Shown here: piece by piece, positions 25,065 to 29,481 of the stretch
Layout: each line of letters opens with the position of its first letter
How positions within the stretch are numbered: position 1 is the stretch's first letter
Source: Microcoleus sp.
GTDB lineage: Bacteria; Cyanobacteriota; Cyanobacteriia; Cyanobacteriales; Microcoleaceae
Assembly: GCA_042408215.1 (NCBI GenBank)
Contig: JAYFMW010000005.1
Location: forward strand, 118,880 to 166,879
Direction: 5' to 3'
Length of the DNA stretch: 48,000 nucleotides
Translations under genes and position numbers: made by a program
Notes under the pieces: model-generated
The model's input: only the letters and a program-made list of their open reading frames with translations
What the model was told of the DNA's origin: nothing
The model's database searches: none

Positions 25065-25069
25065 GTTAT

Positions 25070-26092
25070 CTATATTTGTGTTGGTTCGTAAAAAAAATCT
25101 GGAATTGAAACAGTTGTTTTTTCCAAGACTGCTATTTGATATACATAATAACCAACAGCAAGATCAAGGATTCCCATACCAAAGGGCGAATATACGGTTG
25201 GCTTTTGTCTGTCTAAAGTGAGTTTTCCTTGAATAAGTTGATCGATAGTTCCTGTAACAAAATCTCGGTTTCCAACTTCTTGCTCAGTAAGATGCAAAGA
25301 TGTCGCAGATTTTAAACAGTGATCTACATCATCGACAATGTTGTTTGACTCAAGAATAATTTTTGATGATAAATCTCGCAAAGATAAATGCAAAATAATT
25401 GGATTGTGGGAAAAGATACTAATATCGTCAACATGTGGTGCATTAGCCGTTGTAGTAAAACTAATCAAATCACAAGATGAAATCAGGTTTTCTTTGGTCG
25501 ATGAGATTTGAACTTCCTTGATTCCTTTCTCTTGAGCATACTCTTTCATCGCCATACTGTACTCATCAGCTAAGTCAAACAAATCTAGTGCAGATATTGT
25601 CCAACCAGTATTTAGCAAAAATTTCAAGACATAACGAGCAATTAGTCCGCATCCAACAATCCCCAATCTTTTGACTGTTTTTGGTTCGATCAGATTTTGG
25701 GCGGCTAAAACTGCTGAAGCGGCGGTTCTAGAAGCACTGATAATCGAGCCTTCGAGACACGCTATTGGATATCCAGTTTCATAATCATTGAGAATAATCA
25801 CCGCAGATGCACGAGGGATTCCCTGCGCGATATTCTTGGGAAAACTGGCAATCCATTTGATCCCTGAGATATTAAAGTCTCCTCCCAAATGTGCAGGTAA
25901 AGCAATGATTCTCGCTTCTGGCTTTTCTGGATATTTCAAAAAATAACTATCTGGGTTTATGGTTTTTTTGGCTCCATGAGTAAGATATGCTTTTTGAACT
26001 AAATCAATTACATTTGCATAGTTACTTTGGAGTATTTCATTAACTATCGAACCAGAAATAACTGTAAAATTTTGCTCTATGGTGTTTGTCAT
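25070..26092 (-). CDS. sbnB: SbnB-like NAD-dependent ornithine-cyclodeaminase-family enzyme (L-2,3-diaminopropionate synthesis, second step)
   Basis: RIIALPAHLGGDFNISGIKWIASFP...RASAVIILNDYETGYPIACLEGSIISASRTAA...GIVGCGLIA closely parallels my recollection of S. aureus SbnB (RIIAMPSHIGGEHAISGIKWIGS...RASGVIILNDPETNYPIAVMEASLISSMRTAA). Confidence 0.85.
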   Translation of the reverse strand: MTNTIEQNFTVISGSIVNEILQSNYANVIDLVQKAYLTHGAKKTINPDSYFLKYPEKPEARIIALPAHLGGDFNISGIKWIASFPKNIAQGIPRASAVIILNDYETGYPIACLEGSIISASRTAASAVLAAQNLIEPKTVKRLGIVGCGLIARYVLKFLLNTGWTISALDLFDLADEYSMAMKEYAQEKGIKEVQISSTKENLISSCDLISFTTTANAPHVDDISIFSHNPIILHLSLRDLSSKIILESNNIVDDVDHCLKSATSLHLTEQEVGNRDFVTGTIDQLIQGKLTLDRQKPTVYSPFGMGILDLAVGYYVYQIAVLEKTTVSIPDFFYEPTQI

Positions 26093-26106
26093 GGAAGAAA
26101 TATTTA

Positions 26107-27165
26107 TTAGTCTTTTATTGACTTAAGGCAATTAGGAAAGCGTTCTGAAACCCACCGATCGTCATAAATTGTATCTAGGTAGCTCTCTCCTAAATCAGGA
26201 CTTATTGCTACTATACTTTTCGCTGCATCCAGTTTATGTGCATAAGCTTTGATGCCTGCCAAAACTGTTCCAGTCGAACCTCCGACTAAGAATGTTTTTT
26301 CGCGTAGTAAATATCGACACATTTTTATAGTGTCCTCTTCTTTAACTACTACAATATCATCAATTAGACTTTTATCAACCAATTCTGGTTTTCTACTTGT
26401 ACCTAGTCCTGGGATATATCTTTTACTAGAAGGTAAATCGAAAGTAACCGATCCAAAGGTATCAACTGCAATAACTTTTGTTTTTAGGTTGCGATCTCTA
26501 ATGTATTCAGCACATCCCATTAATGTACCTGTAGTACCTGCACCAATAAATAAGTAATCCACCTCTGAAAAGCTTTCAAATATTGAAGGTGCTGTACTCA
26601 AATAATGTGCATTTTTGTTCTCGCAATTCGCATATTGATTTAGCCAAAATAAATTTCTATCATCTTTAAGCAATTGCTTAATTAAATCAATTCGGCTGTT
26701 TAAAAATCCTCCATTTTTATCTCTATCTTTAACAATTATAAGTTTGGCTCCGAACAATTTTATATATTTCTCATTCCTAGACGAAATGTTTGGATCGCTG
26801 ATACAGGTAAAGCGATATCCTTTAGTCGAACAAGCTAGGCTAGCCGCCACTCCTAAGTTACCAGACGAAGATTCGATAATATGGGTACGATCCGGTGATA
26901 TCTCTCCTTTTTCTTCGAGAGCCTCTAGCATACGTATTGCAGGTTTTATTTTGATAGATCCTGCTGGATTAAATCCCTCAACCTTCAAAAATAGATCTGC
27001 TTTCAAAGACAAGAAATTGTTTAATTTACAAAAAACTTTGTCGAGAATCAGTTCCAAAGAATTTTCAGCAATCAAGGGAGATTTCATCAAAGCTGAGCTA
27101 GATGATTGGAAATTCCCAGACAAAATTAAGGGTGTTTCCGTATCTGGTACATCGTAAAGATTCAT
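26107..27165 (-). CDS. sbnA: SbnA-like PLP-dependent enzyme of the cysteine-synthase fold (L-2,3-diaminopropionate synthesis, first step)
   Basis: FNPAGSIKIKPA (PLP lysine region), IESSSGNLG, GGFLNSRIDLIKQLL, WLNQYAN, IPGLGTSRKPE, VGGSTG and ISPDLGESYLDTIYDDRW parallel my recollection of S. aureus SbnA (IESTSGNLG, WINQYAN, LPGIGASRVPE, AGGSTG, ILPDRGDRYLDLVYSDTW). Confidence 0.85.
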   Translation of the reverse strand: MNLYDVPDTETPLILSGNFQSSSSALMKSPLIAENSLELILDKVFCKLNNFLSLKADLFLKVEGFNPAGSIKIKPAIRMLEALEEKGEISPDRTHIIESSSGNLGVAASLACSTKGYRFTCISDPNISSRNEKYIKLFGAKLIIVKDRDKNGGFLNSRIDLIKQLLKDDRNLFWLNQYANCENKNAHYLSTAPSIFESFSEVDYLFIGAGTTGTLMGCAEYIRDRNLKTKVIAVDTFGSVTFDLPSSKRYIPGLGTSRKPELVDKSLIDDIVVVKEEDTIKMCRYLLREKTFLVGGSTGTVLAGIKAYAHKLDAAKSIVAISPDLGESYLDTIYDDRWVSERFPNCLKSIKD

Positions 27166-27395: not shown

Positions 27396-28334
27396 ATGCT
27401 CACATCTGACTCAAAAAAGATTAAGTTATTACGTTATAAGGGACTTGTTATGGTGCTGGTGGGGGCTACCTTGTGGGGACTTTCTGGTACGGTGGCACAA
27501 AGGCTTTTTCAAGATGAGGGATTTACTCCTGGTTGGCTGGTAACAATGCGCCTGCTAATTTCAGGGATGTTGTTATTAATAACTGGATGTTTACGAAAAA
27601 GTTCCCATCAAGTTTTTGCTGTGTGGAACGATCGCAAAGATAGGATTAGATTAGTATTTTTTGGAATTGTTGGTATGTTGGGAGTACAGTATACCTATTT
27701 CGTGGCAATTCAAACTGGTAATGCTGCTACAGCAACCTTATTGCAATATCAGGCTCCATTATTTATTATGGTTTACTCCGCAATAAAGTACAATCGAATT
27801 CCGAATTTTCAAGAGTTTATAGCCCTGGGATTTGCCCTGTTAGGTACATTCCTTCTGGTAACAAATGGATCTATTCAACAGTTGTCTGTCTCCAGCGCAT
27901 CAATAGCATGGGGATTAAGTTCTGCAATTGCACTTGCATTTTATACGTTATATCCATCAGGCTTGCTACAACGTTGGGGTTCTGAAGTAATCATTGGGTG
28001 GGGCATGATTATAGGAGGGATTGCATTATGCCCGATCGCTTCTCCTTGGCAAATTCAAGGTCAACATTGGTCTGTTATTACTGGTTTGTTAGTAAGTTTT
28101 GTGATTGTATTTGGCACAGCAATCGCTTTTTATCTCTATATAGATAGTCTTCGATACATTACACCTACAGAAGCCAGTTTATTAGCCAGTGCAGAGCCTT
28201 TGTCGGCTGTAGCTGCATCAGTTATTTGGCTTCGCTTACCACTGAGTCTTTTTGAAGGTATCGGTGGACTATGTATTGTTAGTACAGTGTTGATGTTGTC
28301 GCTACGTCCCAAAAATCAAAGCAAAACATTATAA
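27396..28334 (+). CDS. DMT superfamily (EamA-type) transporter, candidate exporter of the cassette product
   Basis: 312-aa ten-helix protein with the EamA pattern (LWGLSGTVAQ..., duplicated halves). It is transcribed divergently from the sbnA-like gene. Confidence 0.8.
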   Translation: MLTSDSKKIKLLRYKGLVMVLVGATLWGLSGTVAQRLFQDEGFTPGWLVTMRLLISGMLLLITGCLRKSSHQVFAVWNDRKDRIRLVFFGIVGMLGVQYTYFVAIQTGNAATATLLQYQAPLFIMVYSAIKYNRIPNFQEFIALGFALLGTFLLVTNGSIQQLSVSSASIAWGLSSAIALAFYTLYPSGLLQRWGSEVIIGWGMIIGGIALCPIASPWQIQGQHWSVITGLLVSFVIVFGTAIAFYLYIDSLRYITPTEASLLASAEPLSAVAASVIWLRLPLSLFEGIGGLCIVSTVLMLSLRPKNQSKTL

Positions 28335-28467
28335 GATTCAACTAGAAAAATCCTTGAGCGGAGCGAGAAAAAATCAGTTTTTTGAAAGGTCTATATATCA
28401 AGAAAGATTCTCAGCTTGCAGCCGTTAACTAAAGTGTGATTTAAATCAAAATAGGTTCATACTAACC

Positions 28468-29358
28468 ATGAAAACAAACAATCAGCCTTGTAATTTTTTC
28501 TTGATGACTGAAAATAGCTTTCATCCAACTTATTTACTCTCACAATGGTATACCAGATTCCAAGGAAACCCATTTTTTAGAGGTATTCTCATACGAGATG
28601 ATAAAAATGATGCTTCACAGTATAGTAAAGAGCGATTTCATCAATTACATCAGAATGAAAAAATTTTAACAAGTGATTCGCTACAGGAAATCAAAACATT
28701 ATATGGTGGACTTAGTAAGACGGAAGCAGCTACGATCGGATTATTTGGAATACCTGCATTGGCACAAAGCTCATTTCAAAAAAGTATCTTTTTAGGTAAA
28801 ACTATCAATAGTGAAAAAGTGAAGAAGTGGCTACAAATAGAATGTAAAAATGAAGGTGGGATTTGTATATTTGTGTTTTTGGATAAGATTCTTAGCCCTT
28901 GGTGGATTGAATTGACAGAAGGTAACATTATTAATGCTCATTCTGCTGTTCTTCCTTATGCAAGAGGTATGTTTGCTGTCGAAAATATGGCATCTCGTGG
29001 TGATATTGAAGAATTTAAACGAGTTGCTGGAGCGTCTGTTCATTATGTAGATGAAGGCGTAGATACTGGCCCTATTATTCAAGCTGTCAGAATAAAAAAT
29101 CCCTTTGAATTTCAATCTTTGTCGGAGGTAAAAGCTTATAGTTATAAGCTGGCTTTCGATCTTCTGATACAGCAAGCTTCAGAAATGATCGAAAATCCTC
29201 AAATACAATCTGTGGGGATCAAAGCCTACCCTACACCCATCAGTCCTGTATTTTCTAGAAAAGACTACACTCCCCAGGTCGAAGAACTCGCGGAAAAGAG
29301 ATTTATAGAAATGAAACAAGATTCAGTCAAGCGGTATAAAAACAAAGGCTTTGCGTAA
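28468..29358 (+). CDS. formyltransferase-family protein (PurN/Fmt-like catalytic core) with a ~130-aa N-terminal extension
   Basis: IINAHSAVLPYARG matches the (L/I)N(I/A)HxSLLPxxRG motif and retains the Asn and His. GASVHYVDEGVDTGPIIQ matches the G-x-T-x-H-x-V-x-x-x-x-D-x-G-x-I motif and retains the Asp. The start could instead be the ATG at 28504. Confidence 0.75.
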   Translation: MKTNNQPCNFFLMTENSFHPTYLLSQWYTRFQGNPFFRGILIRDDKNDASQYSKERFHQLHQNEKILTSDSLQEIKTLYGGLSKTEAATIGLFGIPALAQSSFQKSIFLGKTINSEKVKKWLQIECKNEGGICIFVFLDKILSPWWIELTEGNIINAHSAVLPYARGMFAVENMASRGDIEEFKRVAGASVHYVDEGVDTGPIIQAVRIKNPFEFQSLSEVKAYSYKLAFDLLIQQASEMIENPQIQSVGIKAYPTPISPVFSRKDYTPQVEELAEKRFIEMKQDSVKRYKNKGFA

Positions 29359-29481
29359 GTCCTGCCAAACCTAGGAATACAGCAGCTTAGGAGCAGATTT
29401 AGGGGATATATCGCGCCTTTAACCAATAAGTTTTGTACAAAACCCGCCCTGTACTTCGGTAAGCACCACTTTTCCACCTGC

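Follow-up and report, generated by a model that had tools for sequence, protein, structure and literature searches.

We analyzed a 48,000-nucleotide stretch of a Microcoleus sp. contig (JAYFMW010000005.1, positions 118,880 to 166,879; hereafter the window, in whose own numbering coordinates are given). Within it lies a compact four-gene cassette: homologs of sbnA and sbnB, the Staphylococcus aureus genes for synthesis of L-2,3-diaminopropionate (L-Dap), and, divergently oriented, genes for an EamA/DMT-family permease and a member of the formyltransferase family (FT) (Table 1). The first two genes share a strand, in the order sbnA then sbnB, and are separated by 14 nt. Open reading frame (ORF) calls placed all four genes and the 14-nt gap where a first-pass annotation of this DNA had put them. 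The NCBI pipeline lists the products under MFB8793384-88 as SbnB, SbnA, DMT family transporter, and formyltransferase family protein, the sbnB homolog being MFB8793384.1, named SbnB. Proteins at least 90% identical to those of the cassette occur in many Microcoleus metagenome-assembled genomes and in M. anatoxicus.

Table 1. Coordinates of the cassette, its edges, and the surrounding island
Feature	Position	Strand	Description
Variable island	10357-29412		19 kb, from a GNAT gene to clpC; the cassette is its right end; Tychonema has 6.3 kb of other genes
Truncated RTX-family paralog	24667-25065	+	N-terminal 133 codons abutting the cassette; rearrangement scar, outside the pathway; no Pfam match
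Left edge of cassette	25065/25066		Homology to Anabaena WA102 and to L098 (97%-identical relative) stops here in both
sbnB homolog	25070-26092	-	340 aa; predicted NAD-dependent N-(2-amino-2-carboxyethyl)-L-glutamate dehydrogenase, second step to L-Dap
sbnA homolog	26107-27165	-	352 aa; predicted pyridoxal phosphate (PLP)-dependent enzyme condensing O-phospho-L-serine and L-glutamate, first step to L-Dap
Divergent sbnA/EamA intergenic region	27166-27395		230 bp; presumed from the gene layout to hold both promoters
EamA/DMT-family permease	27396-28334	+	312 aa; 10 predicted transmembrane segments; presumed product exporter
FT, rare uncharacterised clade	28468-29358	+	296 aa; presumed N10-formyl-tetrahydrofolate dependent, acting on L-Dap
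Right edge of cassette	29359-29412		Tychonema bourrellyi homology (~91% at the nucleotide level) resumes at 29413, 54 nt past the FT stop

Family assignment of the cassette proteins

The sbnB homolog scored 419.6 bits against the SbnB model TIGR03944, whose curated equivalog cut-off is 326.9. The next-best family reached 104 bits, and models of the ornithine cyclodeaminase/alanine dehydrogenase type gave at most that value against cut-offs of 266-500. Its best match in the PDB was S. aureus SbnB (4M54, E = 1.4e-36), with alanine dehydrogenase next (8.6e-25). The sbnA homolog scored 398 bits against the SbnA model TIGR03945 (curated equivalog cut-off, 349.95) and fell far below the thresholds of cysKM (204.9; cut-off, 344) and cysK (183.5; cut-off, 351); cystathionine-synthase models were likewise far under their own cut-offs for the proteins of the pair. 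Its best PDB matches were the S. aureus SbnA structures 5D84-87 (E = 2e-62), the next match lying at 7e-45. Equivalents of S. aureus SbnA residues K47, R132, and Y152 are conserved in the window protein. The S185 equivalent is glycine in the window, Anabaena, and Brevibacillus proteins and serine in those of loci L088 and L101, which are described below. These four residues are reportedly, in the work of Kobylarz et al. of 2016, the PLP-binding lysine and residues of the phosphoserine/glutamate site.

We assign the pair as bona fide SbnA and SbnB members at the equivalog level, the identity that the first-pass annotation had proposed from motifs. It had named, as the outcome that would speak against it, a grouping with O-acetylserine sulfhydrylases and true cyclodeaminases. 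No such grouping was found, because the equivalog scores and the PDB matches favor SbnA and SbnB and the competing models lie far below their cut-offs. The cassette thus very probably carries out L-Dap synthesis. In the characterized route, SbnA joins O-phosphoserine and glutamate to form N-(2-amino-2-carboxyethyl)-L-glutamate (ACEGA), which SbnB converts to L-Dap (PMC8264950, PMC10906522). The amino donor of the window SbnA is less certain, because DabB, a related enzyme, uses aspartate and O-phosphothreonine (PMC10906522). According to the summary of Mantas et al. 2022 in PMC9414260, SbnA/SbnB had already been reported in some cyanobacteria, where they were the only recognizable Dap route and a siderophore role was suggested.

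The FT matched the Pfam family PF00551 (Formyl_trans_N) with 46.2 bits (cut-off, 26.1) over residues 132-207, which is the catalytic core only. Its Asn-His-Asp triad (N156, H158, D199) is intact, and the earlier assignment to the formyltransferase family passed on both counts. The triad was invariant in alignments of 16 and of 48 relatives. Scores against PurN (43.1; cut-off, 150.1), PurU (27.3; cut-off, 286), and Fmt (23.8; cut-off, 201.5) were all low, and the protein is classed as neither a purine nor an initiator-tRNA enzyme. The automatic JGI name, phosphoribosylglycinamide formyltransferase, is unwarranted because the FT lies under all three of these cut-offs. An AlphaFold (AF2) model built from the 48-sequence alignment was confident (pLDDT, 92.6). 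A Foldseek search with the model returned WbkC, Fmt, ArnA, and PurN with a probability of 1.0, and also WlaRD, at TM scores of about 0.5 and about 14% identity. The FT is therefore modeled as an N10-formyl-tetrahydrofolate (formyl-THF) transferase fold with an intact Asn/His/Asp triad. A closer relationship to PvdF, Fmt, or PurN was rejected by the NCBIfam cut-offs together with the fold search.

An exhaustive HMMER search of 1.84 billion representative proteins placed 56 of them in the FT family at E ≤ 1e-30; relaxing the threshold to 1e-10 raised the count to 80, beyond which there were only generic PurN-like matches. As judged from this search, the family is small, discrete, and uncharacterised. 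For the homologs from Aliivibrio and Calothrix (P0067 and P0048), a search for gene context came back empty.

The permease matched PF00892 twice, as the earlier call of an EamA/DMT transporter implied, with both repeats above the gathering score (136.8 bits, E = 7.6e-40). It scored 130.4 bits against TIGR00950, a carboxylate/amino acid/amine transporter model (cut-off, 230.2), and lay under the cut-offs of YddG (41.6 versus 300) and YedA (26.6 versus 270).

The 230-bp spacer between sbnA and the EamA gene contained only weak sigma-70-like matches, no more than were found in shuffled sequence, and terminator scans were likewise no better than in shuffled sequence. A riboswitch or other RNA regulator was rejected, as an Rfam gathering scan of the whole 48-kb window was empty.

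Recurrence of the gene set in other lineages

Gene context was sampled at about 25 distinct FT-family loci. When genome contigs were searched with the FT alignment, ordinary PurN genes dominated the result, and only 4 of 80 loci (L001-L004) held the true family, SbnA/B being absent from all four; a family-specific motif scan of metagenome contigs found FT loci better than this alignment-based scan.

In a neighbor-joining tree, the EamA-linked FTs of the window, locus L088, Lucifera butyrica, and Brevibacillus laterosporus formed one clade. SbnA and SbnB are adjacent in three of these four sampled lineages, the exception being Lucifera, which has no local copies. At L088, a second cyanobacterial-type locus, the arrangement is convergent, with EamA-FT facing SbnB-SbnA, and the neighborhood is unrelated to that of the window (HisG, an aminoacyl-tRNA synthetase, and ornithine carbamoyltransferase). 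In B. laterosporus (L083, CP032848), FT, sbnA, and sbnB follow one another in an operon from which EamA diverges, and FT overlaps sbnA by 4 nt. The first gene of that operon (L083 9205-9966) has a 253-aa product that matches no Pfam family; it has no counterpart in the cyanobacterial cassette and may be a fifth component. A fourth lineage with SbnA, SbnB, and FT is represented by L101, where the genes form a tight WD40-SbnA-SbnB-FT operon with a 2-nt gap between sbnB and FT. The SbnA/SbnB partners at L088, B. laterosporus, and L101 all scored above the SbnA/SbnB cut-offs, and no nonribosomal peptide synthetase (NRPS) or NRPS-independent siderophore synthetase (NIS) gene was found beside any of these three homologous cassettes.

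The two halves of the cassette differ in how far they have diverged. Between loci, SbnA identity is only 36-40%, a level equal to that between each of these proteins and the S. aureus enzyme, and the SbnA/SbnB proteins together span 32-43%, compared with 46-62% for EamA and FT; the EamA homologs that adjoin FT in Lucifera, L088, and Brevibacillus are 47-62% identical. Moreover, Anabaena sp. WA102, a member of a different order (Nostocales), is 88.6% identical at the nucleotide level to positions 25065-27148 of the window, a segment limited to sbnB and sbnA. Because this match covers sbnBA without EamA-FT, sbnBA is by itself a mobile unit of two genes. The identity contrast and the Anabaena locus together indicate that the histories of the Dap module and of the FT/exporter module are distinct, and the much greater divergence of the SbnAs indicates that the two were joined more than once. 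Repeated joining points to a functional rather than an accidental association and argues for a functional coupling of the predicted FT and exporter to Dap synthesis. The first-pass annotation had treated the four genes as one unit. The recurrence of the same functions in other lineages supports this; historically, however, the cassette is not one unit, given sbnBA alone in Anabaena WA102 beside a heme-oxygenase-like gene and EamA-FT without sbnAB in Lucifera.

The Anabaena genes (L117, CP011456, 8937-12089) encode SbnA and SbnB 86-89% identical to the window proteins. They are followed after 22 nt by a gene for a 346-aa heme-oxygenase-like protein of family PF14518, possibly a diiron oxidase, and EamA and FT are absent. 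The set has the look of another compact, uncharacterised Dap-tailoring trio.

Elsewhere in the family, the pairing of a formyltransferase with a methyltransferase is recurrent, with a SET-domain partner at six loci and a class-I partner at three. The FT-SET pairs are those of L003 (776-1162), L091, L103, L105, L113, and L116, with SET proteins of 95-156 aa (PF00856, E about 1e-14). Beside the pair at L091 lies a PD-(D/E)XK "transposase" family gene (PF12784; 4147-5073), a family also present in the window at 3604-4557. Other FT-family members are fusions with an aminoacyl-tRNA editing domain (PF04073), with ankyrin repeats, or, in an NRPS locus, with an MbtH-like domain; the fusion entries are P0213 (L118 997-2466), P0174 (L119 5428-6486), P0192, and P0199. 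WD40 giants flank FT in L101 and L118, and a peptide-deformylase fragment follows directly after FT in L090.

Origin, edges, and surroundings of the cassette

The cassette has a GC content of 36.7%, compared with 45.4% for the rest of the window, and is the lowest of all 4.3-kb segments. GC at third codon positions (GC3) is 0.26-0.31 in its genes and mostly 0.41-0.60 in the others, and its tetranucleotide deviation is the largest in the window. An earlier estimate by eye (high 30s versus about 50%) was right for the cassette; the flanks, however, are at about 45%. In relative terms, the low GC is more marked than that estimate had suggested.

In Tychonema bourrellyi (L120), which is collinear with window positions 6843-10356 and 29413-38594 at 88-92% nucleotide identity, homologs of all four cassette genes are absent from the locus. 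Two EamA genes occupy the corresponding place in Tychonema, but the idea that the cassette permease is an old resident gene was rejected, as it has no detectable similarity to either. They resemble the window's other EamA gene (19074-20093) at 43-45%, to which the cassette permease is itself unrelated. Comparative evidence marks the cassette as horizontally acquired, accessory DNA. The first-pass impression that it looks foreign is thus sustained by its atypical composition, its absence from Tychonema, and the 88.6% nucleotide match to Anabaena WA102.

Part of the original case for foreignness did not hold up. The cassette does contain zero copies of the HIP1 octamer, as noted earlier, but this is statistically empty as evidence of foreign DNA. 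With 20 sites in 48 kb, the Poisson probability of finding none in 4.3 kb is 0.17, and HIP1-free segments of that length make up 21% of the total. Besides the 7.1-kb gap that includes the cassette, there are two other HIP1-free gaps of 7.3-7.5 kb. HIP1 depletion was therefore rejected as a sign of foreign origin. The reported lack of STRR repeats was confirmed: no heptamer tandem repeats occur between 23440 and 32400, and there are several elsewhere in the window. These STRR-like arrays (1497-1768, 5434-5591, 5870-5912, 33368-33567, 34078-34152, 43372-43399, and 44894-44928) consist of intergenic heptamers such as TTCCCCA, repeated 22.6 times, in a non-heterocystous Microcoleus genome.

We placed the right edge of the cassette where we did because homology to the Tychonema backbone resumes there; GC jumps from 0.37 to 0.54 at the same point. 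On the left, the ORF at 24667-25221 is 76% identical at the amino acid level to the product of 14692-15093 over residues 1-133 only, the similarity ending at nucleotide 25065.

The variable 19-kb island whose right end the cassette forms is built largely from duplicated secreted-protein genes. Positions 11489-16531 and 24015-25065 belong to one paralogous module family: the 127-aa ORF at 24015-24398 has four paralogs of 67-70% identity (at 11525, 12239, 13088, and 14052), and 14692-15093, the 76%-identical counterpart of the ORF starting at 24667, leads into an RTX protein at 15062-16531. The left end of the island, 10357-11433, is a tandem array of 11.3 copies of a 96-bp unit (93% matches), each unit with an inverted "AAACCGGGTTT...AAACCCGGTTT" motif. 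The array starts exactly where synteny with Tychonema breaks (10356/10357), and the ORFs that cross it, 10478-10984 on the minus strand and 10492-11031 on the plus strand, are probably spurious. Also inside the island, the gene at 21268-23268 (GC3, only 0.30) has a 666-aa product that combines a tandem pair of globin domains, a predicted membrane segment, and, at its C terminus, a pentapeptide-repeat domain. In Tychonema, a TnpB/Cas12f-like fragment (PF07282; L120 9134-9571, L121 9092-9571) lies immediately upstream of clpC, at the position that the cassette occupies in Microcoleus, which fits the idea of a mobile-DNA hotspot at this site. Beyond the end of L120 collinearity at 38594, where L120 carries different genes, the window has a Bpu10I-type restriction endonuclease and a DNA methyltransferase (38729-41024; GC, 0.35-0.37; GC3, about 0.3). 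Its position and low GC make this segment look like a second accessory island.

The remaining genes of the window, by Pfam, encode a CLC channel, the PD-(D/E)XK transposase-like protein, DnaJ, UppS, diadenylate cyclase, an Orn/DAP decarboxylase, GNAT, RTX and EF-hand proteins, the second, unrelated EamA protein, the double-globin/pentapeptide protein, ClpC, signal peptidase, PBP1, TyrRS, PyrF, the Bpu10I-type restriction-modification system, and UDG. The longest ORF is that of ClpC (825 aa), and all ORFs of at least 450 aa have a Pfam annotation except 58-1491 (477 aa), which matches no Pfam family. Condensation, adenylation, ketosynthase, and IucA/IucC domains are absent, by Pfam, from the 25 kb upstream and the 18.6 kb downstream of the cassette. 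The 48-kb window thus contains no NRPS, polyketide synthase (PKS), or NIS gene, in agreement with the first-pass statement that no NRPS or siderophore synthetase lies nearby.

A candidate pathway, its alternatives, and known systems

The gene set suggests the following scheme. SbnA would condense O-phospho-L-serine with L-glutamate to ACEGA, and SbnB would cleave ACEGA oxidatively with NAD+ to yield L-Dap and 2-oxoglutarate, both steps being read from equivalog-level membership. The FT would then move a formyl group from formyl-THF onto one of the amino groups of L-Dap, and the permease would export the product. Whether the cassette as a whole is such a make-formylate-export pathway for a Dap derivative is, in our judgment, evenly balanced. 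Free Dap is an antimetabolite, a toxic non-proteinogenic amino acid. Formylation would most plausibly mask it for the producer, either as self-protection or in the form of a pro-toxin. The fusion of an FT to a tRNA-editing domain, the tRNA-deacylase neighbor in Lucifera, and the deformylase fragment at L090 hint at such masking or self-protection. An ectoine-like cyclization to an imidazoline carboxylate was not adopted, as the cassette has no cyclase. The first-pass annotation had likewise envisaged a self-contained route to Dap or N-formyl-Dap. The recurring gene set lends this comparative support; the product itself, however, is still a deduction, and an NRPS elsewhere in the genome may use the Dap.

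Several observations weigh against formylation of Dap as the function of the FT. Among the approximately 25 loci, most FT-family members are not beside SbnA/B. The Lucifera EamA-FT pair has no local sbnAB and adjoins a PF04414 tRNA-deacylase gene. In the neighbor-joining tree, the FTs of L101 and of the window belong to different clades. A small SET-domain methyltransferase accompanies FT in six loci, a class-I methyltransferase adjoins it in three (L106, L111, and L090), and several FT-family genes sit in NRPS/PKS loci. Because of these methyltransferase neighbors and NRPS/PKS contexts, the substrate in the FT family is not always Dap and may be carrier bound; taken as a whole, the family clearly handles more than one amine substrate. 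Dap also has other fates, because Anabaena WA102 carries near-identical sbnAB without FT or EamA. Finally, literature searches found no paper mentioning N-formyl-Dap, and full-text searches returned nothing on an FT/EamA/SbnAB cassette or on this Microcoleus locus.

The same contexts give weight to a different explanation, namely, that the cassette is a precursor-supply island: its sbnAB genes would provide L-Dap for a pathway encoded elsewhere in the Microcoleus genome, be it an NRPS, an NIS, or another consumer of Dap. The permease and the FT would then either serve that pathway, for example by formylating carrier-bound Dap or a peptide N terminus in trans and by exporting the finished compound, or be unrelated to it. 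All characterized SbnA/B-type pairs feed larger assemblies, those of staphyloferrin B, capreomycin, sulfazecin, and L-alanosine (PMC10906522, PMC8264950). Elsewhere, FT-family genes occur in NRPS/PKS loci or as MbtH fusions, the Lucifera EamA-FT pair adjoins a thioesterase, an AMP-binding enzyme, and a PKS, and sbnAB moves independently of FT and EamA. We nevertheless consider this supply role rather unlikely. The flanks of the cassette hold no assembly-line gene over 25 kb upstream or 18.6 kb downstream, neither do the surroundings of the L088, Brevibacillus, and L101 cassettes hold an NRPS or NIS, and the recurrence of so compact a set in unrelated genomes and neighborhoods argues for self-sufficiency. 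Free L-Dap might instead be the exported end product, binding metal or serving as an antimetabolite, while the FT acts on another amine, an aminoacyl-tRNA, or a protein. Such substrates are suggested by the SET-domain neighbors, the ankyrin fusions, and the tRNA-editing-domain fusion; moreover, EamA relatives export unmodified amino acids, and TIGR00950 and YddG are the nearest models of the permease, albeit below their cut-offs. This explanation seems quite doubtful to us. It is sbnAB to which FT is most consistently linked, including through the 2-nt gap at L101 and the 4-nt overlap in Brevibacillus, and such tight operons are hard to explain unless Dap is the FT substrate or a precursor of it.

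The first-pass annotation had also offered the locus as a candidate for the biosynthesis of β-N-methylamino-L-alanine (BMAA). L-Dap is a discussed precursor of BMAA, and in some cyanobacteria SbnA/SbnB are the only recognized route to Dap (Mantas et al. 2022, as summarized in PMC9414260); other FT-family members, moreover, adjoin methyltransferases. These methyltransferase-linked FTs, however, belong to other clades and come without sbnAB. The proposal went unsupported because neither the four cassette proteins nor the immediate flanks contain a methyltransferase domain, and the formyl-THF transferase fold with its Asn/His/Asp triad predicts formylation rather than methylation. In addition, the cassette is sporadic even between near relatives, being absent from Tychonema and reduced to sbnAB in Anabaena WA102, whereas BMAA has been reported from very many cyanobacteria. 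A BMAA pathway is thus very improbable.

The make-formylate-export reading can be extended, though we do so tentatively and think the extended version more probably wrong than right. The EamA-linked FT clade might be a new class of free-amino-acid N-formyltransferases and the cassette a mobile, NRPS-independent route to secreted N-formyl-L-2,3-diaminopropionate. Formyl-Dap would be a masked antimetabolite, unmasked to toxic Dap by the ubiquitous deformylases of competitors. Formylation and, in other members, the fused or neighboring aminoacyl-tRNA editing domains would protect the translation and metabolism of the producer. In toxic mat-forming Microcoleus, the cassette would also create a supply of free Dap, a prerequisite of any methylation to BMAA.

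Part of this picture is familiar: SbnA/B was placed in cyanobacteria in 2022, and automated NCBI annotation names all the parts. What is new is a known Dap module recruited into a mobile cassette that has no adjacent NRPS, together with a novel FT clade and an exporter. To our knowledge, L-Dap has so far been known only as a building block passed straight to siderophore or peptide assembly lines. If correct, a make-formylate-export cassette would be a new way of using Dap and would supply a first function for a rare uncharacterised FT clade. Such a cassette would, moreover, be a sign of an as yet unknown exometabolite, both in Microcoleus and in B. laterosporus. Microcoleus is the genus behind toxic benthic river mats and includes M. 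anatoxicus, one of the carriers of the cassette. B. laterosporus is an insect-pathogenic and biocontrol species that is genetically tractable. For BMAA research, the cassette offers a concrete and cheap test, though the evidence does not favor a direct role.

Among known systems, the SbnA/SbnB pair of S. aureus staphyloferrin B synthesis belongs to the same two families at the equivalog level and has the same adjacent, co-oriented arrangement of sbnA then sbnB. The window pair, however, is only about 37% identical to it and has glycine at the S185 equivalent. In place of the SbnC/E/F synthetases and the major facilitator superfamily exporter SbnD, the cassette has a DMT permease and an FT. Homologous pairs of a PLP enzyme and an NAD dehydrogenase that make L-Dap are CmnB/CmnK (capreomycin), VioB/VioK, SulH/SulG (sulfazecin), and those of the ala cluster (L-alanosine). 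They are more distant from the window pair (CmnB, E = 6e-41; CmnK, E = 3e-11), and the carrier-protein machinery that they supply is in every case encoded beside them, whereas the cassette encodes none. The permease has in common with the amino acid exporters EamA/YdeD, RhtA, and YddG of the DMT superfamily two EamA repeats and a predicted 10-transmembrane architecture, but it matches the amino acid/amine and YddG models only weakly, below all equivalog cut-offs. The logic of making a diamino acid and then N-acylating it recalls the ectoine enzymes EctB and EctA, and ArnA/ArnD offers a case of transient formylation. Both are analogies of concept: there is no sequence relationship to EctA, and the cassette encodes neither a cyclase nor a deformylase. 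PurN, Fmt, the N-terminal domain of ArnA, and the sugar N-formyltransferases WbkC, WlaRD, and VioF have the same fold and Asn-His-Asp triad as the FT. Unlike Fmt, the FT has no C-terminal tRNA-binding domain, and it is set apart from all of these enzymes by a family-specific N-terminal half with helical insertions.

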